Source of the DNA: an uncultured Gammaproteobacteria bacterium
Lineage (GTDB): Bacteria; Patescibacteriota; Microgenomatia; UBA1406; HO2-37-13b
DNA: 64,000 nt
Assembly: GCA_964612595.1 (NCBI GenBank)
Contig: CAZTFB010000001.1
Coordinates: 195,058-259,057, forward strand
Direction: 5' to 3'
The position numbers and the translations under genes are program-made. Positions 1 to 17,201 of this stretch are shown piece by piece. The notes below the pieces were generated by a model. The model did no database searches, had not been told where the DNA came from, and saw nothing but the letters and a program-made list of their open reading frames with translations. Within the stretch, counting starts at the first letter, position 1. The number at the start of each line of letters is the position of its first letter.

Positions 1-44
1 TGTATAAGCGACTGCATAGTCTTTTAAGAAGTAAGACAAATCAG

Positions 45-1067
45 ATGCTATTCATAGCAGATCCAAGTACAAATAGATTAGCTTTTACTAACTTCAGAAA
101 GACAAAGGGATTGCGCGAACTCCCCTATGCGCCAGACGGTTATGATGCCTTGACTCCTGAATCTTTCGAAGATGATGGGTTCCTGAAGGAATTTGTCTCA
201 AAAGTAATTGAGTTTCAGGTGACTAATGGCTGCAACATATTAACAGCACCATTTTTCTTCTTCGATAATACATCCGACGGATGGTTCTCCGTTAATATAA
301 AGCTTTTAAGGGAATCAATAGATTATGTGTCTTCAAAATATCCACAATATAAGTTGTCAGGCGCTATTTGTACGCAGGCAGAGACCCTGTGTCGTAAAAG
401 TGAAAGAGACACAATCATAGAAAATTATGGTCATTGTAAAACGGACTATTTACAATTTTATATCGACAAAATTACAGAGAATACTAATGATGCTCAGATA
501 TACAATTTCATTCTTACCGCCAAGTCAATTAAAGACTTTTCTGGAACTAAAATTATTGCGTGTCGTGTTCCCACGATAGCACTAGGACTACTCACGTTAG
601 GCTTTGATGCGATAACATCAGGTCTTGGCGTCATAGATAACTTTACGAAGAACATTCTGATAAAAGATGAAGATACAAAGCCCACTATGCCGACAAGGCA
701 TTTTTTCCCTGAGCTTTTAACATGTATTACCATAAGCCCAAAAAATAGAACATACCAGGATATATTGGCTCAAGAGGCTGAATTAATAGCTAGCTTCCCC
801 AATATGGATATTCGTTTAAACTGTAATTGCGAAGGGTGTTCACATCCTTCGTTTACAGATTATAAAAGACCTCGGTTGCATTTCCTCCATGAAATTAAGC
901 ATGAGCTCGAAGAAATCAGCAAATTGGATTCTTCACAAAGAAAGCAATATTTTTCAAACAGAATTGATAGAGCTTATTTTCTTCAACAGAAGTTAATCGA
1001 AAGAGGCGTGAAACTAAATTCACCAAACTATCTTCAGACTTGGAAAGAAATTCTGCTCAAGTTTTGA
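45..1067 (+). CDS. TGT-superfamily protein (tRNA-guanine transglycosylase-like; DpdA-like candidate)
   Basis: 340-aa ORF. The frame stays open upstream to position 3, so the N-terminus may lie outside the window. Motifs GFDAITSG, MPTRHF and LNCNCEGCSHPS..RLHFLHEIKH resemble the TGT FD / PTR catalytic segments and the CxCxxC..H zinc site. Confidence 0.5.
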   Translation: MLFIADPSTNRLAFTNFRKTKGLRELPYAPDGYDALTPESFEDDGFLKEFVSKVIEFQVTNGCNILTAPFFFFDNTSDGWFSVNIKLLRESIDYVSSKYPQYKLSGAICTQAETLCRKSERDTIIENYGHCKTDYLQFYIDKITENTNDAQIYNFILTAKSIKDFSGTKIIACRVPTIALGLLTLGFDAITSGLGVIDNFTKNILIKDEDTKPTMPTRHFFPELLTCITISPKNRTYQDILAQEAELIASFPNMDIRLNCNCEGCSHPSFTDYKRPRLHFLHEIKHELEEISKLDSSQRKQYFSNRIDRAYFLQQKLIERGVKLNSPNYLQTWKEILLKF

Positions 1068-1732
1068 ACAGTTGATGTCTCATAAAGAAATAGTTCTTTA
1101 GCAAAAAGTCCTACAATATCATCATAAATAGATACTGAATTCTCTATGGTTGGTTTCTGTTTAATCCATATTTCACCATCTTTTTCGTTAAAGAGAATTA
1201 AGCCAATGCCAAATTTACTCAAAAAACTCATATCGATGTTCTTTTCATATTGCGAGAGTATCGCCAAATAACACTCATCTGTATAGCTTTTGTACCTTCT
1301 TGCTTGCAGAATACCTTGCTTCCAATCTTTGAGTTTAACTTCTATCGCTACAAGTTTTTTTATCGGATTAGTCGAAAAAGTATCAGTCTTACAGTAATGG
1401 TCATCTTCTTTGAGAATGTAATTCCCAGAAGTTAATATATTGATGACAGCATTACCAATTGCCTTACCTCCTCCTGAGGCTTTGACTATATCATCCCTGG
1501 TGAAGAGTCGGGCATTTGGAAGTGAAAGATAACTTTTCAGAGCATAGTAATTATTTAGTGGCATTCTATTCATCTCATTCTGATTTGTGAGGAAATCTTT
1601 TGCAAAAACCAAATCAGCAATACCATAGCCACCCGCAAATTCTCGTACAGCGATGTCTGTGTTGAATTTCTGCTGCAGGCCTTTAGCTAGCCTACTGACC
1701 AGTTCGAATTCACTTTTGATATTTATGGGCAT
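1034..1732 (-). CDS. hypothetical protein, possible PD-(D/E)xK nuclease fold
   Basis: 232-aa ORF converging on the TGT-like gene with a 34-nt overlap. GIADLVF and VAIEVKLKDWKQGILQARRY resemble the D ... ExK strands of restriction-endonuclease-like folds, but the spacing (~90 aa) is unusually long. Confidence 0.3.
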   Translation of the reverse strand: MPINIKSEFELVSRLAKGLQQKFNTDIAVREFAGGYGIADLVFAKDFLTNQNEMNRMPLNNYYALKSYLSLPNARLFTRDDIVKASGGGKAIGNAVINILTSGNYILKEDDHYCKTDTFSTNPIKKLVAIEVKLKDWKQGILQARRYKSYTDECYLAILSQYEKNIDMSFLSKFGIGLILFNEKDGEIWIKQKPTIENSVSIYDDIVGLFAKELFLYETSTVQNLSRISFQV

Positions 1733-1806
1733 TACATTTAGAATAACATATCAATAATGTAGAAATCCAATACTTTTGCTAGCAAAAGAGATAATAGGAG
1801 ATGAAG

Positions 1807-4359
1807 CTAAATGATAACTCTATCTTGTTGGATGGGTTCAGATTCGAGTTTTGTTTGAGCTTGCTCAATAGCTCTATTTGCCTCACTTCTGATTTGATTT
1901 TTTAGCCCATATTGCTTTTTCGAATATTCTATTACAGAATTTCGTATTTCTTCTCTGTTTTGTACCAGAAACTGACTAATATTACCTGTAAATGCATTCT
2001 GAGGTTCAATTGCATTGATCTTCATATAAAAGTGGTAGGAAGGAAGATTTGATATTTCATACTTCTCAACTTGTGGAGAGAATAATGGTAGAATCATATC
2101 CTCGTCTGTCGGATTGCTTGTTCTGAAAGAGATAATGCTTCCCACATTGGCAAGAATAACTTTAAGTAAATCTTTATCCTCGATCTGAGACACAGTCTGA
2201 TGAGCGAGAATAGTGTTCAGTCGATACTTCCTAGCCTCGGATAATATTTGAGCAAAAGAAGATGTTGCAAAGTTTTGGAATTCGTCAATATATAAGAAGA
2301 AGTCAGTTCGTTTCTTTTCTGGAAGATCAACTCGTTTTAGTGCAGCCAGCTGAATCTTTGCTACAAGTAGACCTCCTAAAAATGATGAGATATCTTCACC
2401 TATTCTTCCCTTGGATAAATCGCACAGTAGAATCTTTTTGTTATTCATAATATCTGCAAAGTCCAGTTTTGATTCTTCCTGAGTCAGAATATTTCGAGTA
2501 AGTGAAGTGGTAAGGAATCGCCCCAGCTTATTAGTAATCGGACCTATCTGGTCTGCCTTCTGGTAACTCCCGAGCTTTCCAAATTCATCTACCCAGAAGT
2601 CTTTTAAAATTCCTTTTGGAAGAGTTGCTACGGTTTTCTTTCTGAACTGAACATTAGTCAGGAGCTTGTAGACAGTCAAAAGCGTTGGCTTCTCAAGCTC
2701 AAGTGCTGTGAGAACTGTATTTCGTAGGATATGTTCCATTCGAGGTCCCGAGTACCGTGCTGGATAGAGCTTTTGAAAGATTGATATGACACTTGACGCA
2801 ATCATATCCTTTTCTCGCTGCTTTTCTACTTCATTTACACCTTTGCTCATCTCAAGAATATTAAGTCCCACTGGTCGTTCAATATCATACGGGTTAAAAT
2901 ACACCACATCTTGAATTCTTTCCTCTGGAATGACTCCAAGAATTCGTTGAACTAAGTCTCCATGGGGGTCAATGATAGCTACACCACTACCTTTTAAAAG
3001 ATCATGATGAATCATACGTAGTAGAGCGGTCGTCTTTCCAGTTCCGGTAGCCCCGATAATGTACATATGTCGTCTGCGTTCCTCAAGCGTGAGACCTATC
3101 GGAACGGTCGTTTCTCCATATGTGTTATGAGCAAAAACTGAGTCAAGTTTGTGAGATGAGCTTTTTAATGGTAGTGGTGAGGGTAGCATTGGACTCTTTA
3201 CGGTGAGCAAATCTTCAGTCTTTGTGGTTGCAGTGTATGGGAGATGGTAGAGCGATGAGAGTTCGGAGATGGATAAGATGTCATTTTTTGAGAAAGACAG
3301 GGATCTAGTTTTAAAGAAAATGTATCGTACCTTGTTTAGGACTGGATTATTAATTATAGAAAATATCGACCGTTTTAATCGGAGTGATTGATGTGGGGTG
3401 GAGAATGTATCAAATGACGATTTAAGACCTTTTACACGACTCAGAACGCTTTGCTTGTTTTCTGCAGAAACATACAATCGCATAGACACTTCAAATAACG
3501 GCTCACTGATTTTCTCACCAATGCTTTTGAACAGCTCTTTTTTAGGATTACTTAAATCGTGTATCCTTTTCATTTTGGTAGAGCCAAATACTTTCAAGAA
3601 TAAATGATAGAAGTAGTGCAAGAATCCTTTGTAGAGGTCGCTTGAAATATCCTGATCCGACATCAGTTTTTCCTTTATCTCTGCAATATATGATTGGATA
3701 GCTTTGTGGGTATGAGACTGAACTGGTGTACACACAAAATGAAGTGCTATTAATTCATTTATATTAAGCTTGGTCATCTGCGCGGTGACGTATGCGATCG
3801 GATCATGCTCTTTGAGCATTGACCGATCTTGGAGAGGAAACAGAAATGATTTCGATAGTTTGAACTCTCTGAAAGCACGGTATTGCTCTGGCTGGGTTCG
3901 CGCTAGATAGTCAGAGACTTCCTTTACTTCGATTCCAGGGAGGTATGCAACAAAGCTTTTCTTAATGAGCGATCTATCATCCTGAGAAACTCTAAGGATG
4001 AATCGTATTCCTGCTTCTTTTGAGGAAACAAGCTCACAACTGATTGACTGTTTGACTCCCACAATTCTCTCAAGAAAGGAAGTAGGACGATCTATGGAAT
4101 GGAGTATGCCAAACAGCTGTTTTGTTGAAAACGCGCTCTTGAGTGCTTTATATGTGGGCTTTACTTCTAAATAAACATATCGCTTTTTAGAAGTGAGTAC
4201 AAGTCGTAGTATGGCTAGAAAAACAGATAGGAAGATCAAAATAGCGCCTGAGACAGTAAGGAATCGAATGATATCAATGAGGAAAGCTTCTGAGAACAGT
4301 GGCACTAAATAGGCTGGAAGTACTTCTGTAGGATTAATTGCAGCCAGTTGATTATCCAT
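1807..4359 (-). CDS. membrane-anchored VirD4/TraD/TraG-like coupling-protein ATPase (FtsK/HerA superfamily)
   Basis: 850 aa. N-terminal hydrophobic segment ILIFLSVFLAILRLVL, Walker A IIGATGTGKTT, Walker B FFLYIDEFQNF, and an ARKYRLNTILAHQT motif typical of type IV coupling proteins. Confidence 0.7.
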   Translation of the reverse strand: MDNQLAAINPTEVLPAYLVPLFSEAFLIDIIRFLTVSGAILIFLSVFLAILRLVLTSKKRYVYLEVKPTYKALKSAFSTKQLFGILHSIDRPTSFLERIVGVKQSISCELVSSKEAGIRFILRVSQDDRSLIKKSFVAYLPGIEVKEVSDYLARTQPEQYRAFREFKLSKSFLFPLQDRSMLKEHDPIAYVTAQMTKLNINELIALHFVCTPVQSHTHKAIQSYIAEIKEKLMSDQDISSDLYKGFLHYFYHLFLKVFGSTKMKRIHDLSNPKKELFKSIGEKISEPLFEVSMRLYVSAENKQSVLSRVKGLKSSFDTFSTPHQSLRLKRSIFSIINNPVLNKVRYIFFKTRSLSFSKNDILSISELSSLYHLPYTATTKTEDLLTVKSPMLPSPLPLKSSSHKLDSVFAHNTYGETTVPIGLTLEERRRHMYIIGATGTGKTTALLRMIHHDLLKGSGVAIIDPHGDLVQRILGVIPEERIQDVVYFNPYDIERPVGLNILEMSKGVNEVEKQREKDMIASSVISIFQKLYPARYSGPRMEHILRNTVLTALELEKPTLLTVYKLLTNVQFRKKTVATLPKGILKDFWVDEFGKLGSYQKADQIGPITNKLGRFLTTSLTRNILTQEESKLDFADIMNNKKILLCDLSKGRIGEDISSFLGGLLVAKIQLAALKRVDLPEKKRTDFFLYIDEFQNFATSSFAQILSEARKYRLNTILAHQTVSQIEDKDLLKVILANVGSIISFRTSNPTDEDMILPLFSPQVEKYEISNLPSYHFYMKINAIEPQNAFTGNISQFLVQNREEIRNSVIEYSKKQYGLKNQIRSEANRAIEQAQTKLESEPIQQDRVII

Positions 4360-4472
4360 ATATGATTAGGGCCGTCATGATAACCCAAATAAGGCTGAAG
4401 TATATCAAAAAACGTCAATTAAGTAAAGCTATATGAGGATACTAATCAAAGTAAATCTAAGTTAATTTCCTC

Positions 4473-4500
4473 TTGACAACTATCCCGTTCGGGATATATA
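4473..4500 (+). promoter_or_regulatory. sigma70-like promoter for the small ORF plus recombinase pair
   Basis: TTGACA (4473-4478), 16-nt spacer, TATATA (4495-4500). The TTG start given in the ORF track is the -35 hexamer itself. Confidence 0.5.
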
Positions 4501-4532
4501 CTATCTCTAACGAGATAGTTAGTAATACAAAT

Positions 4533-4883
4533 ATGAATACGCAAATAAATACTTTGTCTTTAGCAATTGAACAATTGCCAATCAGTCAAAAGCCTAGAAT
4601 TGAGCATAAAATCATAATTAATCCTTCGGATAATTATATACAACCTAATAAGTATGATTCTACATCAGCACTACTCAACAGGCTATTCCCAGAGCAAAAC
4701 CAAGGAGAAAAAATTATTAGACAAACTAGAGCTCTTTTAGGAAACTTAGTTGAGCACTACACGACAGAACAGATCGAGCAAATAATGATACAAATTTTAT
4801 ATTTATCTGAGACGTGGCTGGACTCGTATGAAAGAAAGATTTTCAATGGGATGACATTAAATGAGTTGTTAAATATGGGATAA
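4533..4883 (+). CDS. hypothetical small protein upstream of the recombinase
   Basis: Start re-assigned to ATG 4533 (MNTQINTL...). It ends 2 nt before the recombinase ATG, so it is probably co-transcribed. No recognisable motif. Confidence 0.4.
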   Translation: MNTQINTLSLAIEQLPISQKPRIEHKIIINPSDNYIQPNKYDSTSALLNRLFPEQNQGEKIIRQTRALLGNLVEHYTTEQIEQIMIQILYLSETWLDSYERKIFNGMTLNELLNMG

Positions 4884-4885
4884 CT

Positions 4886-6460
4886 ATGGAAATAGAAGTT
4901 GGTTCTAAAAATCAATTAACCTCAAAAAGGGCAATAATATATTTACGCGTTTCAACAGAGGAACAGGTTGATAATTATTCACTTGAAACACAAGAGGATA
5001 TCTGTCAAAAAGAAGCTGTTAGACGTGGTTATGAAGTGACAACGATCTTTCGCGAGGAAGGTAAGTCGGCTAAGAATATTGTAGGAAGACCTGTTTTAAT
5101 AAATCTTTTGGAGTTTTGCAGAAAGAATAAGAATCAAGTTCAGGCAGTCTTTGTATATCGTTTAGATAGAATCTCACGTCAGACTTCAGATTATCTAGCT
5201 ATCCGCAAAAAGTTAGCTGAGAATGGTGTAACAATACTTTCGGCAACGGAACCTACGGGTAATAGCCCTACAGAAAAGCTTGTTGAAACAATGTTAGCTG
5301 CCTTTGGACAACTAGATAATGATGTAAGAAGCGAGAGGACTAAGAATGGAATGAGAGCCAGATTTTTATCTGGACTACCAAATTGTAAACCGCCAGTCGG
5401 GTATATGTTAAAAAGCGGTTATGTGATCAATGATCCTGAAACTTTTGATCTAATGAAGAAAGCGTGGGAATTAATGTCAACAGGGACAAAAAGTCTATCA
5501 GAGATGGCTATCATAATGAATGATTGGGGGTTGAGAGTCAAGACTAAGAGTAAGACATTTAAGCTCCGAAGCCAGACATTAAGTAGGTTTTTTAGATGCA
5601 AGTTTTATATGGGTATTCTTACCTCTGAGCATTATCCTGAGGAAGTTGTAGGTAAACACACTGCGATGATATCCCAGCAGATGTTTTACAAAGTACAAGC
5701 CATAATTGATGGGAGAAATCCAAATAAGCTTTCCTTAACTCATCGTGTCAGAGAAAACCCTAAATTCCCATTACGCAGATTTGCCAAATGTGGACTATGC
5801 GGAGCAGCCTTTACCGGATATTGGTGTAAGGGAAATGGCGGAAAATATGCGTACTATCGATGTAGCAAGTTTTGTACAGGCAAATCAGTCAAAGTCGAGG
5901 TAATGGATGAGGAATTAATTAAATTACTAAAAGATATCACTCCCACAGAAGAGGGTTTAGAGTTATTCATCTCCTTCATACAACGACATTACTATAAAAG
6001 ACTTTCAAGATTGCAAAAAGTAAGGAATGACTCTGATTCAGAGATAGTAAGACTTCAAGACTTAAGACAACAACTCGTTGAAAAGAACTTAAGCGGAGTA
6101 TTTTCTGACGATATCTTCAAGGAGCAAAATAAAAGGATAGAAGATCAGATATTTAAAGCACAAATAGCTAAACACGATGAAACGTTCGAAAAATATGATG
6201 TAAATAAAATAACAGACTTTATGAAGACGTTATTGGCTGATTTAGGAGAAACCTATAAACAATCTGATCTTGGGCAGAAAAAAATGCTTATTGGTTCGAT
6301 CTACCCCTCTGGGATCGTCTGGAGCTATCCGGGTTATTCGAACCATGAGGTTGGAGCCATATACCAAGCTATTCAGGATACTTCGAGTGGAAGTATCCCG
6401 TTAGGTGACCCCGAGGGGATTCGAACCCCTGATTCTCAGGATGAAAACCTGATGTCCTAA
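4886..6460 (+). CDS. large serine recombinase (integrase)
   Basis: 524 aa. Resolvase-type N-terminus AIIYLRVSTEEQ..YRLDRISR, a Cys-rich zinc ribbon CGLCGAAFTGY..YYRCSKFC, and a coiled-coil C-terminal part. The last 55 nt run antisense through tRNA-Glu. Confidence 0.85.
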   Translation: MEIEVGSKNQLTSKRAIIYLRVSTEEQVDNYSLETQEDICQKEAVRRGYEVTTIFREEGKSAKNIVGRPVLINLLEFCRKNKNQVQAVFVYRLDRISRQTSDYLAIRKKLAENGVTILSATEPTGNSPTEKLVETMLAAFGQLDNDVRSERTKNGMRARFLSGLPNCKPPVGYMLKSGYVINDPETFDLMKKAWELMSTGTKSLSEMAIIMNDWGLRVKTKSKTFKLRSQTLSRFFRCKFYMGILTSEHYPEEVVGKHTAMISQQMFYKVQAIIDGRNPNKLSLTHRVRENPKFPLRRFAKCGLCGAAFTGYWCKGNGGKYAYYRCSKFCTGKSVKVEVMDEELIKLLKDITPTEEGLELFISFIQRHYYKRLSRLQKVRNDSDSEIVRLQDLRQQLVEKNLSGVFSDDIFKEQNKRIEDQIFKAQIAKHDETFEKYDVNKITDFMKTLLADLGETYKQSDLGQKKMLIGSIYPSGIVWSYPGYSNHEVGAIYQAIQDTSSGSIPLGDPEGIRTPDSQDENLMS

Positions 6461-6478
6461 CCGCTAGACGACGGGGCC
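6406..6478 (-). tRNA. tRNA-Glu (UUC)
   Basis: Reverse complement reads GGCCCCGTCGTCTAGCGGTTAGGACATCAGGTTTTCATCCTGAGAATCAGGGGTTCGAATCCCCTCGGGGTCA. It folds as a cloverleaf with anticodon loop TTTTCAT. CCA is not encoded. Confidence 0.9.
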
Positions 6479-6498
6479 AGGTCACAATTCACGCTAAA

Positions 6499-7137
6499 TT
6501 ATATCATAATAGGCACCATTTCTGAAAAACTATGCACAATATGGTCAGCATTTAGCGCGTTAATCTCATCAATAGTATAAAAAGCCTCATTATGCTCCGG
6601 ATAGTACAAAATTGTAGTTGCCCCAGCAGACTCACCTGCCCTCACATCATGCTCAGAATCCCCAATCATAAATGTGTGGGCGCTATCAATGGAGAAATGC
6701 TTCTGAATTTTATAGATACCTTCCGGATGCGGTTTATGATGAACTACATCTTCGCGGGCGACAACATAATCAATGTTCTTCACTAAATTAGGAAACCTTT
6801 GCACTACCAAATTAAACGATTGTCTTTCCGTTCTTGTGAGAATTGATGTATGAATGCCGTGTATTTTTAATGCTTCCATGACCTCAATAACCCCATCATG
6901 AAGATATACATATTCCTGATGCCTGTGGTAGGCCTGCACATTCTTCTCCCAAAATCCATCTAAATCCGTAACTCCCAAAGCAAGGGGGCCATGATCTTTT
7001 GCAAAAACATTGTCGACAATTTCCTTATCTGAGGGTGTTAAACCCAACTCATCAAACACAGATCTTGCGCCTCTTAACCACGCATCAAGAGTATGAACAA
7101 GACACCCATCAAAATCAAATATGGCTAATTTCTGCAT
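6499..7137 (-). CDS. HAD-superfamily hydrolase (phosphatase)
   Basis: Motif I IFDFDGCLVHT and motif IV GDSEHDVRAG. Confidence 0.8.
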   Translation of the reverse strand: MQKLAIFDFDGCLVHTLDAWLRGARSVFDELGLTPSDKEIVDNVFAKDHGPLALGVTDLDGFWEKNVQAYHRHQEYVYLHDGVIEVMEALKIHGIHTSILTRTERQSFNLVVQRFPNLVKNIDYVVAREDVVHHKPHPEGIYKIQKHFSIDSAHTFMIGDSEHDVRAGESAGATTILYYPEHNEAFYTIDEINALNADHIVHSFSEMVPIMI

Positions 7138-7535: not shown

Positions 7536-7859
7536 TTATCGGTATAGCTTGTCTTGGATTTCTCTTTTTGATCGAGTTCGAATAAAGGCAACACTGGACT
7601 TTCTATTGTCAGTTGCTCGGACAACTTCAACCTTCTCTACGAAAGGAGAAATGATAGGAAATATGCGCTCGACACCAATACCACTACGTGTCATTTTTCT
7701 GACAGTAATCATCTTGTTCGATTCGCGTCCCTTTACAGCGAGCACAATACCCTCAAAAAGCTGACTTTTGCGCTTGTCCTTGTCATTTATTGCGTAGCTA
7801 ATTTTGATGGTATCACCAACGCGAACCGGTGTCTCGTGAAATAAAACAGAATTTGCCAT
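7536..7859 (-). CDS. rplS: 50S ribosomal protein L19
   Basis: 107 aa. VGDTIKISY..FEGIVLAVKGR..ITVRK..GIGVERIFP matches the L19 pattern. Confidence 0.9.
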   Translation of the reverse strand: MANSVLFHETPVRVGDTIKISYAINDKDKRKSQLFEGIVLAVKGRESNKMITVRKMTRSGIGVERIFPIISPFVEKVEVVRATDNRKSSVAFIRTRSKREIQDKLYR

Positions 7860-7883
7860 AATTGGATGTTATTTTAGCATTAA

Positions 7884-9542
7884 TTAGGCTTTTGTACAAG
7901 CCTTAATAAATTCAAGAAAGAGTGGGTGTGGGTTTAATGGGCGACTCTTATATTCCGGATGTCCCTGAATACCTATGTAGAAAGGATGTTCTTCCTTGCT
8001 GAGCTCAATCATTTCTCCAAGACCCTCTACTTTTGATCGAGCAGCAATGGTCATACCGTTTTTCTCAAAATCCTCTGTAAAATCGTTGTTAAACTCATAT
8101 CTGTGTCGGTGACGTTCGCTCATAAGGCGCTCTCCCTCATCAATGTATGCACCATATTTCTTATATATCTCATCAGAATATGTTCCTTCTTTTATATATG
8201 CTTCCCAAGATCCAAGGCGCATTGTCCCACCATATGAACGTCGCTCAAGCATCTCTTTCTGCGCTGGAATGAGATGGATAACTGGATGAGCTGTCTCAGT
8301 ATCATTTTCAGCGGTATTTGCATCTTTCCAGCCAAGTACATCACGGGCAAATGCCACAACAGCGAGTTGCATACCGTAACATAGTCCCAAATAAGGAATT
8401 TTGTGTGTTCTTGCATATGAAGCCGCCGCTATCATTCCCTCAGCGCCCCTTTCGCCCCAACCTATAGGAACAATAATGCCGTCAATTGTTTTGCCTTCGA
8501 GTACTTTATCCATACCCTCTTTTTCTACCTTTTCAGCGCTAATCCATTGAATTTCAGGCTCGCAGTCCAAATTCCAACACGCATGATCAATCGCATCGAA
8601 AAGAGCTGCATATGAATCTTTTAGTTCATATTCCCCTGTTGCAAAGTACTTTCCTACGATAGCTATGTGGGCTTTTTTGGTTTTCTTGGCTTTAACGCGA
8701 TCTACAAATGCCTGCCACTCATCGGTTTTTGCAGGTTTATTTTCGATTTGAAGCTTTGTGGTAATGCGTTCAACAATATTTTGTTCATTTAGTATGAGAG
8801 GAATTTCATACACGCTCTTCACATCATAGCTTGTCATTACATCGCGTGGATCTAGGTTGCAAAAAAGTGAGAGTCGTTCAATACGTCGTTTATCGAGCGG
8901 CTTTGTCGAACGACCAATTAGGATATCCGGCTGAATCCCCATCGAATTAAGCATTCTTACGGAAAGTTGAGCCGGTTTTGTCTTTGGCTCGCCAAGATGC
9001 TGTGGATTGGGAATATAACTCACATGCACATGGATAACATCGCCAGGTTTGCGGAATGAAAGAATCCGTGCTGCCTCATAGTACAGTACATTCTGATACT
9101 CACCAACGGTTCCACCAAGCTCAATAACTGCAATATCGCCATTCTGGGCATCGAGTGAACGTTCATAACGACTTAGAATTTCATCTGTCACATGCGGAAT
9201 GGCTTCGACATCTTCGCCACCATACTCAAATCTACGTTCTTTATCCAATACATGTCGGTAAATCTGACCAACGGTCATAAAATTAGCATGACCCATGTCC
9301 TGGTGGAGAAATTTTTCATACGTACCGATGTCCATATCAGCCTCAAGACCGTCTTCACAAAGGAACGGGTCGCCATGTTCTATAGGATTTATCGTGCCAG
9401 AATCGATATTGAGGTAATTTTCACATTTAATCGGTACTACTTTGTAGCCGGCGGACTTGAGAAGAAAGGCTATGGAGGCTGAAGTAATGCCTTTTCCAAG
9501 GCCGGAGATTACTCCTCCAGATATAAAGATATACTTCCGCAT
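7884..9542 (-). CDS. pyrG: CTP synthase
   Basis: N-terminus MRKYIFISGGVISGLGKGITSASI and glutamine-amidotransferase Cys motif GLCYGMQ. Confidence 0.95.
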   Translation of the reverse strand: MRKYIFISGGVISGLGKGITSASIAFLLKSAGYKVVPIKCENYLNIDSGTINPIEHGDPFLCEDGLEADMDIGTYEKFLHQDMGHANFMTVGQIYRHVLDKERRFEYGGEDVEAIPHVTDEILSRYERSLDAQNGDIAVIELGGTVGEYQNVLYYEAARILSFRKPGDVIHVHVSYIPNPQHLGEPKTKPAQLSVRMLNSMGIQPDILIGRSTKPLDKRRIERLSLFCNLDPRDVMTSYDVKSVYEIPLILNEQNIVERITTKLQIENKPAKTDEWQAFVDRVKAKKTKKAHIAIVGKYFATGEYELKDSYAALFDAIDHACWNLDCEPEIQWISAEKVEKEGMDKVLEGKTIDGIIVPIGWGERGAEGMIAAASYARTHKIPYLGLCYGMQLAVVAFARDVLGWKDANTAENDTETAHPVIHLIPAQKEMLERRSYGGTMRLGSWEAYIKEGTYSDEIYKKYGAYIDEGERLMSERHRHRYEFNNDFTEDFEKNGMTIAARSKVEGLGEMIELSKEEHPFYIGIQGHPEYKSRPLNPHPLFLEFIKACTKA

Positions 9543-9725
9543 TAGTGCATGTTAAAGGATTGAAGGCTAAAAATCAACAACATGTATAATGAGTTTGCTG
9601 CAGTCTTTGCAGATAAGTATGGAGATCCAGATAGTACAAGGAATTCCGGTTCGGTTTTCGTCTCTCACCTGAATACACAATGTTTGTGTACTGAGGTGAG
9701 AAAGAACTTTTGCTATACTAGAGTA

Positions 9726-11132
9726 GTGACAAATTTTGATATCTACCAATCTCCTTTTTCCTACCGCTATGGTTCTGATGAAATGCGAAAAATATGGTCT
9801 GAGAATCATAAGTGGGAGCTTGCATCACAACTATGGACAGAGGTAGCTCGTGCACAACACATTGCAGGTATTGTTACTGCTGAGGAACTTGCTGACTTAG
9901 AAGCACATATTGGTAGTATAGATTTTAATAGATTATGCGAAATTGAGCGTGAAACAAGACATGATGTGGTTGCGGGTATTCGGGCATTTCAAGAAATGGC
10001 TACTATTGGAGGACGTGTCATACATCATGGCATGACCTCAGAAGATATGACCTCAAACGTTGATGCAATGCGAAATCGTGAGGCGCTTGGCATTGTTCGT
10101 GATGGTCTAGATGATACGCTACTCGGCTTCGCCGAACGCATCGAAGAGCTTGCTGACATGCCGTGCATGGGGTGGACGCATATGCAGCCAGCAGAACCGG
10201 TAACTGTTGGTTATCGACTTGCCGTACATGCACATAATCTACTTGATGATCGCAGGCGACTCGAGTGGACAATGGATAATATTCGTGCGAAAGGTATAAA
10301 AGGGGCTGTTGGCAGCGCCGCGTCATTTCAGGCAATACTAGATGGTACAGACATGACAGCCGCGCAACTTGAAGAGATGGTTATGGATCGCCTCGGCCTA
10401 CGCCCCGCACTTATCACTGCACAAGTTGCACCAAGAAAATACGACGCCTGGATTGCAGATGCACTTATGGGAATAGGAGATAGTCTCTATCAGTTTGGAT
10501 TAAATGCACGAATTTTACAATCACCTCCATTCGGTGAATGGTCAGAGTCTCGTGAAAAGGGACAGGTTGGCTCATCTGCTATGCCGTGGAAAAAGAACCC
10601 AGTTGGTGCTGAGAATGTCATGTCTCTAGCTAGAGGTATTATGGGAGACCAAGTAAACGCTCATGCTGTCGCAATGAATCAGGTTCTTGAGCGTGGTATT
10701 GATGATTCTGGGGATCGAAGAATTACAAACCCCGACATGTTTCTGCGCGCAGATGAAGCATTGCGTCGAACAAACAAGTTAGTGAGAGGACTTGTTATTC
10801 ATGAATCCGCCGTTCAGCGACATTTAGATACGTATGGCCCATTTGCTGCTATTGAAAAAGTCTTAGCGGCAGCTGTTGAGAGTGGAGCTGACCGCCAAGC
10901 AACACATGAAGTTCTACGCGAGATAGCACTTGAAGCATCAGCAGCGGTTGAAAGAGGTGAGGCTAATCCTCTCGTCGATATGGCACTGGAAAGTCAATTA
11001 CTATCCGAAACAAGTCAATTGCCGAGAGAGCGCATTGCTGAGCTGTTTGAGGATGATATTCGCCTACACACTGGGACGGCTGCAGATCGCAGCCGCCAGC
11101 TTGTTGAGGAAATTCGGGCTACTTGCCAATAA
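9726..11132 (+). CDS. purB: adenylosuccinate lyase
   Basis: Fumarate-lyase signature GSSAMPWKKNP and N-terminal YRYGSDEMRKIWSE. The track start 9582 lies inside a TATAAT box, so GTG 9726 is proposed; the start remains uncertain. Visibly GC-richer than its neighbours. Confidence 0.85.
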   Translation: MTNFDIYQSPFSYRYGSDEMRKIWSENHKWELASQLWTEVARAQHIAGIVTAEELADLEAHIGSIDFNRLCEIERETRHDVVAGIRAFQEMATIGGRVIHHGMTSEDMTSNVDAMRNREALGIVRDGLDDTLLGFAERIEELADMPCMGWTHMQPAEPVTVGYRLAVHAHNLLDDRRRLEWTMDNIRAKGIKGAVGSAASFQAILDGTDMTAAQLEEMVMDRLGLRPALITAQVAPRKYDAWIADALMGIGDSLYQFGLNARILQSPPFGEWSESREKGQVGSSAMPWKKNPVGAENVMSLARGIMGDQVNAHAVAMNQVLERGIDDSGDRRITNPDMFLRADEALRRTNKLVRGLVIHESAVQRHLDTYGPFAAIEKVLAAAVESGADRQATHEVLREIALEASAAVERGEANPLVDMALESQLLSETSQLPRERIAELFEDDIRLHTGTAADRSRQLVEEIRATCQ

Positions 11133-13596
11133 TTTTTTTGACCTCCTCGATGGTCATTTTATCAATTATTGCCTTTTGCTCATCCTTATCACTTGGTAGT
11201 TTCAGTCGATACATTTTCTTGTCACCATCTTTTTTTATAAATGGTCCCCACCTACCCTGTAGAATACGTATTTTTTCTTCTTTCCATTCTTTTAGCGTGC
11301 GATCTTTATCTCTCTTAGCCTTTTCCTGAATGAGCTCAACAGCCTGCGTACCTGTTATCGTCGCAAATTCATAGCCCGATTTCTTTGAGATTGGCACATA
11401 ACTATTATTCCACTTTACGTAAGGACCAAATCGTCCAACACCTTTAGTGATTGGAAGTCCCTCGTATTCTCCAATAGGAGCTTTTTCTTTCATTTTCTCT
11501 TCAATAATAGGTTTGGCATCATTAAGTTGCATACTGAAGAGATCAAGATTGCGAGGAATACTGATATAATCATCTCCATATTTAATGTATGGCCCAAATC
11601 GACCTCGACTTATCATCACATCACGATCATTAAGAGTGCCTAATGATTTAGGTAGCTCAAAAAGCTTCATGGCATCCTCAAGAGTGATCGTTTCGATCGA
11701 TTGACCTAACATAAGACCAGCATAATGAGGTTTCTCGTCGCCCAATTCTTCCTTTGTACCAATTTGAGCAACGGGGCCAAATTTACTTAAACGTACAAGA
11801 ATTGTTCTTCCTGTTTTGGGGTCCTTACCTAATACTCGTTCACCAGACTCCCGACCAGCAGTTTCAAGAGTGTCTTTGACAGTTTTAATGAATGGTTTGA
11901 AATATTTATCAACTGTTTTTTGCCAGTTTACTTTTCCTGCCGCAATTTCATCAAGTTTATCTTCAACCTCAGCAGTAAATGAGTATTGCATAATCTCTTT
12001 AAAATTCTCATTGAGAAAATCAGTGACAACCATACCCATATCGTTTGCAAAAAGCTTGTTTTTTTGTGCTCCGGCAACCTCGCTGACAGAACTCTCTTTG
12101 ATTGTCTTGTCGGTTAAGATTAATTTAATATAGTCTGTTGGCGTACCTTCTCTCGTTTCTTTGGATACATATCCTCTTGTAGGCGAGGTTATCTTGTCAA
12201 TAGTGGGCGCATAGGTTGATGGTCTTCCGATACCTAATTCTTCAAGTTTCTTAACAAGGGTTGCTTCCGTATATCTAGCTGGAGCTTTTGAAAAGCGCTG
12301 CAAAGCTTGAATTTCAGAATATTTAACTTTCTGACCTTCTTCAAGTTGAGGAAGGATAATATCTTCAAGACTTTGAGAGGTATTCTTATATAGCTTCATA
12401 AAGCCGTCAAAGATTATTACTTCTCCATGTGCTTTAAATGAATGTTTGCTATGTGAGTTCTTTATCTCAACATCGGTTTTATCTACCTTTGCATCGGCCA
12501 TTTGTGAAGCTAATGTGCGTAAGCGTATAAGCTCATACAGCTTTTGTTCATCACGGTTTTGGGATACGTGCTCCTTGTCTATATACGATGGACGTATGGC
12601 TTCATGCGCCTCTTGAGCAAGTTTTGACTTACTTTTAAAGTTACGAACAGTAAGATATTCCTTTCCATACGTTCCTTCGACGTATGATGCAATAGAAGCA
12701 AGTGCTATGTTGCTTATACTTATAGAATCTGTTCTCATATAAGTAATAAATCCTTGCTCATAAAGTTTTTGAGCTGTCGACATGGTTCTTTTTACTGAAA
12801 AGCCAAGCCTTTGGGCTGCTACCTGCTGGAGCATAGATGTAGTAAGTGGTGCAGGTGGTTTCCTTGTAGAGGGTGACTGTTTAATTGATGTAACAGTAAA
12901 TTCGGCATCAAGACAATTCTCTAAAAATTTCTTTGTAGAATCGAGATCTTTCAGTGTTGTATCAAGTTCAGCTGGAAAGGATTCATTTTTATTCCCACTC
13001 AAAAACATAGCAGTAACTTTATATTGTTCCACTGGTTTAAATGCGCCAATTTCGCGTTCACGCTCAACAACAAGCTTTACAGCAACAGATTGAACACGTC
13101 CAGCCGACAACTTTCCTCGAACTTTTTTCCACAGTAAGCCAGATAATTCAAATCCGAATAGTCGATCAAGTACCCTACGAGCTTGTTGCGCATCTACAAG
13201 TGCAGTATCAATAGCACGTGGATGCTCTATAGCTGCCAGAATAGCTTGGGGAGTAATTTCAGTGAACGTAATTCGGGAAATCTTTGTATCGGGTAATTTT
13301 AGTACTTCTTTTAAATGCCAGGAAATTGCCTCTCCTTCGCGATCCTCATCCGTTGCAAGAATAAATGTATCGTACTTTGGTATAAGCTTTTTAAGCTCAG
13401 AGACAGTTTTCTTCTTAGCATCGGGCACTACATAGTGTGGGAGATACTCGTTGTCAATTTCGACACCGGTATTTTTATAGCCATCTTTCGCAAGATCTCT
13501 TACATGTCCATAGGAGGAACGCACACTGTAGTCCTTTCCTAGAATTTTTTCAATGGTTTTTGCCTTTGCAGGCGACTCGACAATAACTAGATTCAT
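11119..13596 (-). CDS. topA: DNA topoisomerase I
   Basis: MNLVIVESPAKAKTIEKILG, Toprim TDEDREGE, active-site context ITYMRTDS. The C-terminus has three Cys-free GRFGPY/GRWGPF repeats instead of zinc ribbons. Confidence 0.95.
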   Translation of the reverse strand: MNLVIVESPAKAKTIEKILGKDYSVRSSYGHVRDLAKDGYKNTGVEIDNEYLPHYVVPDAKKKTVSELKKLIPKYDTFILATDEDREGEAISWHLKEVLKLPDTKISRITFTEITPQAILAAIEHPRAIDTALVDAQQARRVLDRLFGFELSGLLWKKVRGKLSAGRVQSVAVKLVVEREREIGAFKPVEQYKVTAMFLSGNKNESFPAELDTTLKDLDSTKKFLENCLDAEFTVTSIKQSPSTRKPPAPLTTSMLQQVAAQRLGFSVKRTMSTAQKLYEQGFITYMRTDSISISNIALASIASYVEGTYGKEYLTVRNFKSKSKLAQEAHEAIRPSYIDKEHVSQNRDEQKLYELIRLRTLASQMADAKVDKTDVEIKNSHSKHSFKAHGEVIIFDGFMKLYKNTSQSLEDIILPQLEEGQKVKYSEIQALQRFSKAPARYTEATLVKKLEELGIGRPSTYAPTIDKITSPTRGYVSKETREGTPTDYIKLILTDKTIKESSVSEVAGAQKNKLFANDMGMVVTDFLNENFKEIMQYSFTAEVEDKLDEIAAGKVNWQKTVDKYFKPFIKTVKDTLETAGRESGERVLGKDPKTGRTILVRLSKFGPVAQIGTKEELGDEKPHYAGLMLGQSIETITLEDAMKLFELPKSLGTLNDRDVMISRGRFGPYIKYGDDYISIPRNLDLFSMQLNDAKPIIEEKMKEKAPIGEYEGLPITKGVGRFGPYVKWNNSYVPISKKSGYEFATITGTQAVELIQEKAKRDKDRTLKEWKEEKIRILQGRWGPFIKKDGDKKMYRLKLPSDKDEQKAIIDKMTIEEVKKIIGK

Positions 13597-13721
13597 GGTT
13601 ACAAGTCAAAATAATAACGTATTTCGAAGTGTATAACAAGAAGGTTAAAGAATTATTATCGAGTCAAGGTTAAACACTTTTTTAAAATTTAAGCGTCATT
13701 TAAATGTTCATTAAGAACCTA

Positions 13722-13737
13722 TTTGCGGAATATTATA
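13722..13737 (-). other. 3'-flank arm of the 23S processing stem
   Basis: TTTGCGGAATATTATA is the perfect reverse complement of 17667-17682. This is the typical RNase III processing helix bracketing a 23S rRNA. Confidence 0.7.
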
Positions 13738-14113
13738 GTCGTCCATTAGTACACATGGGCTAAAAGCATTACTGCTCTTACACCGTGCGCCTATCAACCC
13801 AGTAATCTCCTGGGGGACTAATAAGGAATTCTAATCTCGAGGTAAGCTTCATACTTGAGATGCTTTCAGTATTTATCTCATAGGAATATAGCTACCCAGC
13901 GCTGCCCTTGTGGGACAACTGGTACACCAGGGATTCCCTCTTCTCGGTCCTCTCGTACTAGAGAAGAGCCCTCTCAAAATTCCAATCGCCTGCACCGGAT
14001 AGAGTCCGAGCTGTCTCACGACGCTCTGAACCCAGCTCGCGTACCGTTTTAATGGGCGAACAGACCAACCCTTGGGACCTGCTACGGCCCCAGGATACGG
14101 TGAGCCGACATCG

Positions 14114-14929
14114 CACTATATCCACTATTACTAGCGGTGTGGACTATATCTTCATCCTATACGTCTGATATAGGAGTTGGCGTGTTAGCATAGAATGATG
14201 TCTTCTACGCTCTCTTTGGTTATTAGGCCAAAGAAGTCTCTAGGGGGTCATATTTCAAGTTTATACCTCATGGAAGGTATAATAAATGGCTCTATTAGTT
14301 CTTGTAAGTGATTTAGACTAGATTTTAAAAATCTAATTCGAAAGTAGTGCTTATCTTTATTAAGTCTTACCTTCAAACCAAGATTGTCAAGAATTCCAAT
14401 AAGATTGTTTTGACTTTTTAGATCAAATTGCTGTGTGTTTAAATATACATCAGACGCTCGACATTTACTGCCGTCGTCCATGTACCACACTGCCAAACTT
14501 AATGGGTCTATTGATATATTAGGAATAGATTTCTTCCCATCCTTATAAAACTTTAAATAAAGTTTTGTAAGTTGGGGAAGTTGTCTGGTAAAAAAGCGAT
14601 ACGCCATTCTGTTTCCATTACCTTTACGCATTATTGGTGCGTTTTTTGTAATAGATCTCAAATAATCATATTTCCAATCAACATATTCTTTTTGTTGATA
14701 AGAATGATTAATCTCGAGAAAAGCATTGCTTCTTCCAGGCACTATTCTTAAATATCCATCACCTAACAAGGACCCTATTACCACAGACATTTGTACTTGA
14801 GATAGACTTCCCACGGTATTGTCCATATTATTTGTAGTTTATACTACACGCTTCGTATGGAGTCCACCGTTATAAGCCACTTGTTTTTGTACGGTATTGC
14901 TACCATAGGCACCCCATTTGTCGTCTTCA
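14114..14929 (-). mobile_element. group I intron in 23S rRNA (between equivalents of E. coli U2500 and C2501)
   Basis: The conserved segment ..GGCACCU|CGAUGUCGGCUC.. is split by 816 nt. The upstream exon ends in U, and the intron's last base is G. Intron nt 16-22, GGGUGCC, can pair with exon GGCACCU to give a P1 helix with a U-G pair at the splice site. The intron contains a LAGLIDADG ORF. Confidence 0.75.
14248..14826 (-). CDS. LAGLIDADG homing endonuclease (intron-encoded, two-motif type)
   Basis: 192 aa with motifs [11 protein letters not shown] and AVWYMDDGS. It lies wholly inside the 23S insertion. Confidence 0.85.
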
Positions 14930-14972
14930 AGGTGCCGAACCTCCCCGTCGATATGAACTCTCAGGGGAGACA

Positions 14973-15005
<33 letters not shown>

Positions 15006-15260
15006 AAGCCCCGCCGGCAATCATAGCCGATCGGGGGATCACTAACGCCTTCTTTCGAATCTGATCGGGATGTATCCCTCACAGTTAAGCTGGCTTTTGC
15101 GTTTACACATACATTCCGATTTCCATCCGGAATAAGCCAACCTTTGCGCTCCTCCGTTACTTTTTAGGAGGAAACCGCCCCAGTTAAACTGACCACCTAC
15201 TACTGTCCCCCGTAAAACGAGGTCAGACTCAAAGCTTTTAAAGAGAGGTGTTTCATTGGT

Positions 15261-15325
15261 GTCAGCTCCAATCTATACTATAGGTATTCTATTATGTTTA
15301 TCCTATAGTATAAATTGGAGCTGAC
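15261..15325 (-). repeat. 23S hairpin insert a
   Basis: 24-bp stem with 1 mismatch (GTCAGCTCCAATCTATACTATAGG / CCTATAGTATAAATTGGAGCTGAC) and a 17-nt loop. Confidence 0.8.
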
Positions 15326-15477
15326 TCCCTCCTACGCTAAACAGTTAAAAGCCTCTTATCAATAATAAGTTTCAGTAAAGCTCCCGGGGTCTTCTTGTCC
15401 AGGTGCAGGAAGGCCGCATCTTCACAGCCATTTCAATTTCGCCGAGCAGTAGTTCAAGACAGTTTTCAACTTGTTAA

Positions 15478-15511
<34 letters not shown>

Positions 15512-15711
15512 GGCTACGCTACCTTAGAACGGTCAGAGTTACCGCTGTCGTTCACCGGAGCTTGAATCAGAGCCTTGTCCGAAATAAATCGGACTCAACC
15601 CCAATTCTTGACTTACCGGCACTGGACAGGCCTCACCCCCTATACTTCCCGTTTCCGGTTTGCAGGGAGCTGTGTTTTTGCTAAACAGTCAGTTGAAAGT
15701 CATTTGCTGCG

Positions 15712-15776
15712 CCCAGCCCCAATTTGATACCCGATCTATGATTTTACTCTCGATCCGATCTCAAATTGGGGCTGGG
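15712..15776 (-). repeat. 23S hairpin insert b
   Basis: Perfect 16-bp stem CCCAGCCCCAATTTGA / TCAAATTGGGGCTGGG. Confidence 0.8.
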
Positions 15777-15974
15777 AGGACATATCCCTAAGTTACGTCC
15801 AGCTAATTTGCCGAGTTCCTTGAACCACCCTTACTCGATTGCCTTAGTCTTCTCGACCAATCCACCTGTGTCGGTTTGCGGTACGGACAAATATAAAACT
15901 CCCAGAACGGCTTTTCCCGGAAACATAACGAAGCAATCTCCCTCGACTTGCGTCAAAGTTGTATTCACAGCTCT

Positions 15975-16032
15975 CCAGCTCTATTTGAGCTCTATAGATT
16001 GTACAAAACCCATAAAACACAAATAGAGCTGG
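15975..16032 (-). repeat. 23S hairpin insert c
   Basis: Perfect 13-bp stem CCAGCTCTATTTG / CAAATAGAGCTGG. Confidence 0.8.
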
Positions 16033-16411
16033 ATTGCTGCTTAAACCCCCATATAGAAGGCACTGCATATCATATTTCGTCACCACAATGGTAATAACGC
16101 TTTATACTTGGTAGCCGAATATTAACGGCTTGTACATCGAGATCCGCCTTTCGGCAGGACCCTTAGATCCGACTAACCCTCAGCCGATGTACGTTGCTGA
16201 GGAAACCTTGGATTTTCGGCATCCTGAATTTTCATCAGGAGTATACGCTACTCATGCCAGCATTCTCACTTCTGTACGCTCCACCACACCTTACAGTTAT
16301 AGCTTCAGTGCATACAGAAAGCTCCCCTACCGCGACCTCAATATAAATATTGAAACCACCTCCAGCTTCGGTATATTGTTTGAGCCTCGATCATTTTCGG
16401 CGCAAGGTCTC

Positions 16412-16478
16412 ATACCAGCTCCATTTAATACTATAGTTGTCGCTATATAAGACCTATAGTACTAAATGGAGCTGGTAT
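16412..16478 (-). repeat. 23S hairpin insert d (helix-45 region)
   Basis: 25-bp stem with 1 mismatch (ATACCAGCTCCATTTAATACTATAG / CTATAGTACTAAATGGAGCTGGTAT) and a 17-nt loop. It has no counterpart in the E. coli sequence as I recall it. Confidence 0.8.
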
Positions 16479-17038
16479 ATTACGGTGAGCTGTTACGCTT
16501 TCTTTAAAAGGTGGCTGCTTCTAAGCCAACTTCCCGTCTGTCTTTGAAACCTCACAACCTTTACCACTTAACAATAATTTGGAGACCTTAGCTGGGAGTC
16601 TGGGCTGTTTCCCTTTCGACCATACTCGCTTATCCGAGCAAGTCTGACTCCTTTCGATTTTAACAGTGAGTATTCGGAGTTTGGTTAATCCTAGTTACCA
16701 AAGGCTCCTAGGACTATCCAGTGCTCTACCCCTCACCTTACTCGAAAAGGCTATACCTAAATATATCTCGGGGAGAACCAGCTATCTCTAAGTTCGATAG
16801 GCATATTACCACTAACCACAAGTCATCCCAAGTCATTTCACCGACAACGAGTGCGGGCCTCCCCCTGTCTTTCGACAAGGTTCACCCTGCTCATGGTTAG
16901 CTCACTTAGTTTCGGGTCTTTTAACAGCTACTGAACGCCCTATTCAGACTCGCTTTCGCTATGGCTTCCCAACTTAATTGGTTAACCTTGCAGCTGCTAA
17001 AAACTCGCTGGCTCATTCTTCAATAGGCACGACATCAT

Positions 17039-17160: not shown

Positions 17161-17201
<41 letters not shown>

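Follow-up and report, generated by a model that had tools for sequence, protein, structure and literature searches.

We analysed a stretch of 64,000 nucleotides from a Microgenomates chromosome (Candidate Phyla Radiation, CPR, or Patescibacteria; GenBank assembly GCA_964612595.1, contig CAZTFB010000001.1, positions 195,058 to 259,057 of the forward strand), which is called the window in the following. The subject is its left end, where five open reading frames (ORFs) lie to the left of a tRNA-Glu gene. A preliminary description had read these genes as one end of an integrated mobile element that abuts the 3' end of the tRNA and extends beyond the left edge of the window. It had named a large serine recombinase (LSR), a small co-transcribed ORF, a membrane-anchored VirD4/TraD-like ATPase, a protein resembling tRNA-guanine transglycosylase (TGT) and a possible nuclease. 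Using ARAGORN and Rfam the tRNA was placed at 6404-6478 on the minus strand, and beyond it follow the core genes for a HAD hydrolase, YraN, L19, PyrG, adenylosuccinate lyase, TopA and 23S rRNA. The proposed element end at the 3' end of the tRNA was confirmed. The part to its left, window positions 1-6403, is very probably the right end of a mobile element of the integrative mobilisable type that has integrated here. The features of the region are:

3-1067, plus strand: C-terminal TGT-like domain (354 amino acids) of a 673-amino-acid fusion with a Ser/Thr kinase; the frame is open to the window edge; cargo
1034-1732, minus strand: ORF of 232 amino acids with PD-(D/E)xK-like motifs, convergent with the kinase fusion (34-nt overlap); cargo
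1807-4359, minus strand: ATPase resembling type IV coupling proteins (T4CPs), 850 amino acids (DUF8128 + TrwB_AAD_bind + DUF87 + TraG-D_C); backbone gene
4473-4520, plus strand: sigma-70-like promoter TTGACA-18-TATACT, proposed from its consensus match, with an overlapping inverted repeat
4533-4883, plus strand: small ORF, 116 amino acids, probably co-transcribed with the recombinase; backbone gene
4886-6460, plus strand: LSR, 524 amino acids (Pfam domains, phrog_95)
6374-6400: hairpin with an 11-bp stem (-15.1 kcal/mol) within the coding tail of the recombinase gene, just inside the element end
6404-6410: crossover zone, comprising tRNA nt 69-73 and the two following C; dyad centre between 6408 and 6407
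6404-6478, minus strand: tRNA-Glu(UUC), 3' end facing left; chromosomal integration target, with an identical tRNA at empty sites

Judged by the relatives of its PyrG, the host is a Microgenomates (OP11) bacterium. Comparison with relatives, which the preliminary description had recommended, favours an insertion, since the gene block is not conserved in synteny beside tRNA-Glu and two of the loci compared are empty. The first is L091, a strain with a PyrG protein identical to that of the window and with 96.5% identical DNA across the pyrG-rplS-yraN flank to the right of the tRNA. Here, the identical tRNA-Glu is followed after 22 nt by glpX. Identity with the window stops at 6404, just past ...GGTCACC, and from position 3982 onward, on the glpX side of the empty site, L091 reads CACATTTCCTTAAAGACC.... 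At the second empty site, in L006 (Microgenomates OLB23), the genes next to tRNA-Glu are DUF305, glpX, a holA-like gene and a phosphomannomutase gene. In L005, which represents the closest species, the same tRNA-Glu is entered in antisense by a recombinase from another clade (6403-7056). In L008, a Roizmanbacterium, a recombinase 3'-end relic of about 190 nt lies beside tRNA-Glu (12547-12700) with no element attached; it encodes the last 65 residues of a related recombinase with 49% identity. Among close relatives the gene block is present or absent, and tRNA-Glu is a recurrent target. The possibility that tRNA-Glu belongs to the element was rejected because the tRNA is present at the empty sites. 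The contig break at window position 6481 was rejected as attachment (att) site as well; it reflects strain variation, L091 sharing the tRNA and 3 nt and then differing. The G+C content of the insert is only modestly lower than that of the adjacent core genes (37.3% versus 41.3%).

As had been proposed, the insert continues to the left of the window. The public Logan contig SRR35845086_1553131 (L001; 53.6 kb, of which 14.6 kb were examined) is 100% identical to window positions 1-6481 and carries at least 8.2 kb of further insert beyond the left edge, which gives a length of at least 14.6 kb for the element. The junction itself was found with 100% identity in two further samples (L003 and L004). 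The extension on L001 comprises the kinase fusion, a Replic_Relax protein, an HXXEE protein, a BlaI/BlaR1-like pair, DsbA/DsbD, HMA, CsoR, a YncE-like protein and a Cu P-type ATPase. The copper and redox cargo together with the BlaI/BlaR1-like regulators occupies L001 positions 8958-14675, that is 2.5-8.2 kb left of the window. A similar copper set is located between recombinase and ATPase in the unrelated element L175.

A direct repeat of the tRNA-Glu 3' segment had been suggested as a mark of the far end, and no copy was present in the 14.6 kb examined. A 24-mer of this segment, searched with up to 3 mismatches in the window and in L001, matched the tRNA itself and the T-arm of an unrelated tRNA-Ala only; a 10-mer, searched with up to 1 mismatch in the 14.6 kb of L001, matched only the tRNA itself. 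An upstream repeat of the tRNA end was sought in 39 related loci, and L161 alone was positive. The missing repeat does not count against integration, because a serine recombinase needs only a 2-bp crossover. A search with glpX homologues for the far-side junction yielded a best match of 76% identity and did not return the copy of the window strain, and a walk along L001 with the partial Cu-ATPase did not return the exact protein.

The large serine recombinase is present as described. The protein contains the catalytic Resolvase domain (114.3 bits), the Recombinase domain (31.6 bits) and the zinc ribbon Zn_ribbon_recom (29.5 bits), all above the Pfam cut-offs and together the domain set of serine integrases, and it matches phrog_95 'integrase' at 2.4e-79. 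The motif YLRVSTEEQ is invariant in three relatives. The CcrB model scored 93 bits compared with a cut-off of 900 bits, and close relatives of recombinase and ATPase were not found in IMG/VR. The last 57 nt of the gene run antisense through tRNA-Glu, with the last 17 codons and the stop codon antisense to the tRNA, and the codon of G507 (GGT) is the reverse complement of the tRNA-terminal ACC.

The small ORF ends 2 nt before the ATG of the recombinase, and in L085, L092 and L176 a homologue occupies the position immediately before the recombinase. The promoter previously described in front of it as TTGACA-16-TATATA is present at 4473-4502 and can equally be read as TTGACA-18-TATACT. With 11 of 12 matches it is the best of 29 sites in 7.6 kb, although the number of promoter-like sites is no higher than in shuffled sequence (29 versus 22.9 +/- 4.8). 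The start codon of the ORF is most likely ATG 4533 rather than TTG 4473. A 19-nt imperfect inverted repeat (4478-4496 / 4502-4520, 84% complementary) overlaps the promoter of small ORF and recombinase, and could be an operator controlling integrase expression. The protein had no family match in Pfam, NCBIfam or PHROG; a function as recombination directionality factor or in regulation is conceivable.

The ATPase agrees with the membrane-anchored VirD4/TraD-like protein of the preliminary description. A hydrophobic segment spans approximately residues 25-58, the Walker A motif at 436 reads GATGTGKT, and LYIDEF, read from the ORF, is the candidate Walker B motif. TrwB_AAD_bind (46.2 bits, cut-off 20.5), TraG-D_C (25.6 bits, cut-off 22) and DUF87 were all matched above their Pfam cut-offs, and the closest solved relatives are TrwB (1e9r, 2.6e-13) and DotL (1.2e-7). 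Judged by these matches, the protein is a predicted member of the T4CP superfamily and belongs to no named subfamily. A search for relatives revealed 814 proteins at E<=1e-10, typically 840-900 amino acids in length and nearly all with the same architecture. All named relatives originate from CPR groups, and they carry the NCBI label 'type IV secretion system DNA-binding domain-containing protein'.

A relaxase gene, which had been suggested as a search target upstream, has a candidate in L001. The gene at 7716-8444, 1.2-2.0 kb left of the window start, encodes a Replic_Relax (PF13814) protein with 33.9 bits compared with a cut-off of 25.3. It is located two genes from the ATPase, and in L087, L092 and L176 it directly follows the ATPase. 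According to PMC5357655 the family PF13814 corresponds to the MOB_C relaxases, and its fold is of the PD-(D/E)xK type (PMC3424549).

To describe the genomic contexts of the ATPase, we compared seven relatives with 48-73% identity and the element of the window. All eight contexts contain, a few kb away and divergent from the ATPase, an LSR with a small upstream ORF, and the order of the backbone is relaxase-like gene, T4CP-like ATPase, small ORF, LSR and target. In seven of them the recombinase runs antisense into a tRNA gene (Glu twice, Leu UAG twice, Leu GAG, Ser GGA and Val UAC); in the remaining context the target is the 3' end of a YibE_F gene, which the recombinase overlaps. Genes for DUF2958 and RadC recur in these contexts. 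The cargo of the relatives is variable and includes type I restriction-modification, PDDEXK, trypsin-like and AbiEii genes, and copper resistance in L175. In L174 a second Resolvase gene (1-338) runs into tRNA-Gln at the edge of a cluster of six tRNAs. As the recombinases of L005 and L174 also lie at tRNA ends, tRNA-end targeting is not confined to one clade.

A larger sample was obtained with an alignment of three recombinases, which retrieved 80 metagenome loci (without taxonomy) at 51-71% identity. At least 110 nt past the recombinase match were available in 53 loci, and 48 of these showed an antisense tRNA, with 19 anticodons in total. The tRNA 3' end was found 1-4 nt from the codon-507 position (7 nt in one locus); part of this spread is probably caused by ARAGORN including nucleotides past the discriminator base or not. 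In the window, L085 and L092, where the junctions were read by eye, the Gly codon 507 pairs with the 3'-terminal nucleotides of the tRNA. Where the upstream sequence was long enough, 28 of 40 loci had the ATPase, 26 of 29 had a Replic_Relax-like gene and 57 of 68 had the small ORF.

The comparison of L138 and L139 demonstrated that one element uses more than one tRNA species. Over 1476 nt the recombinase genes of both loci show 100% identity, and the shared sequence amounts to at least 11.5 kb with 97.6% identity. L138 abuts tRNA-Leu(CAG) and L139 tRNA-Leu(UAG); identity between the two tRNAs is 77.6%, and the outer flanks show no relationship. No element boundary was revealed by this pair, as the shared stretch exceeds the 10-kb flank. 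Both loci are identical from -4 (before the discriminator base) inward to the element, and the window and the empty site L091 are identical through +2. In L161, the sole locus with an upstream junction repeat, the 12-nt sequence AATGGTGCGCCT at the tRNA-Arg junction (11510) recurs at 2951; it spans -7 to +5 and implies an element of about 8.6 kb. Further att-like copies in this locus, a related 21-nt sequence at 2291 and a degenerate tRNA-end-like sequence at 1904, suggest tandem accretion or relics at one tRNA.

An analysis of 54 non-redundant junctions revealed that dyad symmetry peaks between tRNA nt 71 and 72 (mean 0.39 versus a background of about 0.25). The invariant T-13 and C-12 of the T-loop/T-stem are mirrored by G+9 and A+10 on the element side in 85-91% of these junctions. 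From these four agreeing lines, L138/L139, the empty site, the L161 repeat and the dyad, we concluded that the crossover probably takes place at the last acceptor-stem nucleotides, between 4 nt upstream and 2 nt downstream of the discriminator base, and in the window it was narrowed to 7 nt. Because the crossover would lie at this position and the recombinase gene runs up to it, the tRNA would be left essentially chromosomal and the final codons and the stop codon of the recombinase would be supplied from across the junction.

The hairpin at 6374-6400 lies 4-30 nt inside the element end. It was rejected as crossover, because the sequence from +3 onward is absent from the empty sites. Comparable hairpins of different sequence occur in about half of 51 related junctions, 43% of which rank in the best 5% of windows, and the mean minimum free energy at this position is -5.6 compared with -2.2 for other windows of the same recombinase genes. 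The hairpin could be a terminator against read-through from the tRNA, part of the att site of the circular element (attP) or an origin of transfer (oriT).

Insertion polymorphism, conserved backbone, tRNA-end targeting and the crossover zone were thus demonstrated computationally. Empty sites, leftward continuation and the relaxase-like gene support the reading as an integrated mobile element. Considered by its predicted functions, a set consisting of recombinase and small ORF, T4CP-like ATPase and MOB_C-type protein, with no pore genes, is best called that of an integrative mobilisable element (IME). This label was chosen because no genes of a type IV secretion system (T4SS) were seen in the 14.6 kb examined.

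Several points weigh against this assignment. Compared with T4CP models, the ATPase exceeds the Pfam cut-offs, but it remains far below those of the curated TraD/VirD4 equivalogs (SXT_TraD 55 versus 366, conju_CD1115 35 versus 250 and TraD_Ftype 18 versus 521), and its P-loop half matches 'mad8' of PADLOC at 1.6e-25. The putative relaxase was assigned by its match to PF13814, and neither catalytic residues nor an oriT were identified, no alignment or search aimed at them having been made. VirB4, which had also been suggested as an upstream gene, was not found: using the T4SS proteins of L087 as only queries, no VirB4-, TrbC- or other T4SS genes were detected in the 14.6 kb of L001 or in the 64-kb window, and no VirB4/TrbC-like gene in the 10 kb that precede the recombinase in any of the 80 relatives. 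The sole VirB4 match among these loci, in L097, is on the chromosomal side. The left end of the element was not found, and its total size is therefore given only as at least 14.6 kb; no circular or attP junction was observed among the sequences examined. The central dinucleotide implied by the dyad is often GC, which is palindromic and does not fix the orientation alone, and the centre may be off by 1-2 bases. In addition, according to PMC12102498 the T4CP homologue of a cultivated Saccharibacterium was non-essential whereas other T4SS genes were essential, and the authors argue that the T4SS of Patescibacteria may be non-conjugative.

The T4SS genes could be located in the approximately 39 kb of the contig beyond the examined part, and the element would then be a self-transmissible integrative and conjugative element (ICE). 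The contig comprises 53.6 kb, of which about 14.7 kb were examined, and in L087 genes for TrbC/VirB2-like and VirB4-like proteins follow on the element side, 6-9 kb past the ATPase. We regard an ICE as unlikely, because the 80 related loci lack such genes in the 10 kb analysed and because L161, with about 8.6 kb according to its junction repeat, showed no match to ATPase or T4SS queries. Furthermore, the patescibacterial T4SS genes are reported to be chromosomal and often located near dnaA; among 2,918 genomes of Patescibacteria, Quinonero-Coronel et al. (2025) counted 5,713 VirD4-like T4CPs, with no more than 148 of these encoded near virB4 (PMC12102498).

A decayed or immobilised genomic island, a real but old insertion with genes that no longer move it, would be consistent with the lack of an observed excised form, with the relics in L008 and the extra att-like copies in L161, and with a composition only slightly unlike that of the host. 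This explanation is improbable in view of the intact backbone ORFs, the completely identical junction in L003 and L004, the absence of the insert from a strain with 96.5% identical DNA and the identical recombinases at different tRNAs.

The mad8 match, together with weak HerA matches, raises the question of whether the ATPase acts in defence, in a MADS- or HerA-like system, or in DNA uptake, with the block as a defence island carried by a recombinase. Genes of the restriction-modification, PDDEXK, AbiEii and trypsin-like kinds abound in the cargo of the relatives, and 176 of 215 plasmids with a matching ATPase are typed as non-mobilisable. However, one of eight MADS genes was matched, and only in the shared P-loop domain; four neighbouring proteins showed no credible PADLOC match, the only one listed for them, to Csx1 at E=0.0033, being marginal and lacking a qualifying stretch. 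The genes that accompany the ATPase are a Replic_Relax/MOB_C gene and a recombinase, with no constant defence partner, and TrwB and DotL are its closest solved relatives. We therefore consider a role of the ATPase in defence or DNA uptake doubtful. The end of a prophage or phage-plasmid is very improbable: the ATPase matches phrog_5156 over approximately its full length at 6.2e-71 and the recombinase phrog_95 'integrase', but no capsid, tail, terminase or lysis genes are present in the 14.6 kb, IMG/VR contains no close relative, and the matches to isolate phages are Bacillus phages only, with 23-25% identity over half of the protein.

Taken together, the locus is an ordinary integrated mobilisable element, but of an apparently undescribed variant. 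A more far-reaching proposal combines all parts: a large undescribed clade of patescibacterial LSRs would be dedicated to tRNA 3' termini (at least 19 isoacceptors, crossover at nt 71-72, conserved T-arm as probable universal half-site) and would carry orphan T4CPs and divergent MOB_C-type relaxases. We put this combination forward tentatively, with a confidence that falls slightly short of even.

We propose the following mechanism. The LSR, located at the extreme right end and reading outward, would have inserted a circular element at the 3' end of tRNA-Glu(UUC), so that the tRNA would be chromosomal up to about nt 71-72, with no long tRNA fragment carried or duplicated. One recombinase subunit may read the universally conserved T-arm and the 3' strand of the acceptor stem as target half-site, which would explain why close relatives of the recombinase use many tRNAs. 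After a presumed excision, the putative relaxase would nick an oriT, and the element's own coupling protein would pass the DNA to a T4SS encoded outside the element; chromosomal T4SSs of the MPF_FATA kind are common in Patescibacteria. The kinase-TGT-like gene, the 232-amino-acid ORF and the copper-resistance genes would be cargo.

The element resembles the streptococcal IMEs described by Coluzzi et al. (2017; PMC5357655) in having an integration module at its end, a relaxase that does not belong to MOB_F or MOB_P (including Rel_PF13814/MobC) and its own coupling protein, as well as variable cargo, no mating-pore genes and the presumed hijacking of a resident T4SS. It differs in its CPR host and in the coupling protein, which is VirD4-like with an N-terminal DUF8128, whereas that of the streptococcal IMEs is TcpA/FtsK-like. 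In addition, the serine recombinase targets tRNA ends here and protein-coding genes in the streptococcal elements.

With islands and ICEs of tyrosine integrases at tRNA genes (P4-like, ICEclc/ICEMlSym; Islander-type, PMC7192596) the element shares the insertion at a tRNA 3' end, the integrase beside a functional tRNA and the tandem accretion, as in L161. In contrast to these, it encodes a serine recombinase, which makes a 2-bp staggered double-strand break, and there is no long displaced tRNA fragment (a 12-nt repeat in L161 and none found here). The crossover probably lies at the last acceptor-stem nucleotides, whereas the tyrosine integrases use the anticodon or T loop. An assignment to the tyrosine-integrase tRNA islands was rejected for two of these reasons, the serine recombinase next to the tRNA and the missing repeat of a tRNA fragment.

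The large serine recombinases of phages (phiC31, Bxb1 and A118) and of SCCmec type (CcrAB) also combine Resolvase, Recombinase and zinc-ribbon domains, use short att sites with dyad symmetry and have a small adjacent candidate for a directionality factor. For CcrAB, too, the integration site is the 3' end of a conserved gene. The identity to the recombinase of the window is low, and the known members of this group target protein-coding genes.

tRNA genes are textbook targets of tyrosine integrases. In the survey of Mageeney et al. (2020) tRNA use was found for 14 of 297 serine integrases (4.9%) compared with 44.5% of tyrosine integrases; the use of t(m)RNA genes by serine integrases was called unreported and in need of proof, and the difference between the families was puzzled over (PMC7192596). 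In the library searched we found no later description of tRNA-targeting serine integrases. About 90% of the LSR clade analysed here lie at tRNA ends with a fixed geometry, which indicates that serine integrases can specialise on tRNA genes. They would do so by a different route, cutting at the last acceptor-stem nucleotides and carrying no tRNA fragment. An integrase that reads a near-universal feature of tRNAs and leaves the tRNA intact is a possible engineering tool for hard-to-transform bacteria.

The orphan VirD4-like T4CPs of Patescibacteria (PMC12102498) are likewise abundant in CPR, rarely near virB4 and sometimes near MOB_C relaxase genes, and the ATPase family of the window is almost certainly this family. 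The same study found hardly any recognisable relaxases in Patescibacteria, counting 109, 58 of them MOB_C and 39 near a t4cp gene. It treats the T4CP genes as chromosomal and possibly exapted, and its text does not mention recombinases, integrases or tRNA, whereas the T4CPs described here lie inside recombinase-bounded insertions with a relaxase-like partner. The location of T4CPs on tRNA-integrated, recombinase-bounded elements beside Replic_Relax genes makes the question of the patescibacterial T4SS directly testable. If the more far-reaching proposal is correct, the 'missing' relaxase and coupling functions of this T4SS would be encoded on IMEs, and the T4SS would mediate conjugation after all.

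Two cargo genes lie at the left edge of the window. The leftmost ORF, listed as 45-1067, was not on record in an exact look-up, being only part of a longer protein; the complete ORF, with 673 amino acids, is located at L001 5415-7436 and starts about 954 nt left of the window. Its N-terminal part matches Pkinase at 2.4e-48. The TGT-like protein of the preliminary description was confirmed as a domain with regard to its fold, whereas the whole protein is a kinase fusion cut by the window edge, and a Pfam TGT match is missing. Neither a Pfam match in any of 42 homologues nor a match in PADLOC or, by sequence, in the PDB was obtained for this domain. An AlphaFold (AF2) model based on the 42 homologues reached a pLDDT of 92.6, and Foldseek listed archaeosine TGT, QTRT1 and the TGT of Z. 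mobilis as top matches (TM 0.41-0.54, E about 1e-3). C274, C279 and H293 of the zinc motif CxCxxC...H are conserved in the 42 homologues. According to the predicted fold the domain would have the TIM barrel and the zinc site of the TGT/DpdA proteins. A set of 1.84 billion proteins contained only 135 representatives of the domain, some as kinase fusions and others on their own, and it is absent from the 80 related loci.

The ORF at 1034-1732, previously described as a possible nuclease, is present, and its PD-(D/E)xK-like motifs (E, GYGIAD, VAIExK and QAxRY) are conserved in a homologue on a Priestia plasmid, but no profile match supports the assignment: no match was found in Pfam, NCBIfam, PHROG, PADLOC or the PDB. 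There is no similarity to the Replic_Relax protein, and a single-sequence AlphaFold model was unusable (pLDDT 36). The full gene pair extends over L001 4750-7436, with convergent genes overlapping by 34 nt at their 3' ends. The same pair, with a 36-nt overlap, is present on the Priestia megaterium plasmid NZ_CP140272.1 (L173 5008-7677). The pair is a portable cassette of two genes and possibly a new defence or toxin-like system.

A further apparent insertion was noticed in the core region of the window. The 23S rRNA gene (13726-17676, minus strand) comprises 3951 nt compared with 2925 nt of the model. According to the gene list of L089, a LAGLIDADG_2 ORF lies within it, in a stretch at about 14248-14814 where the G+C content drops to 0.316. 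This looks like an intron or a homing-endonuclease insertion, as known in rRNA genes of the CPR. A tRNA-Ala gene is located just upstream of the 23S rRNA gene at 17781-17855.

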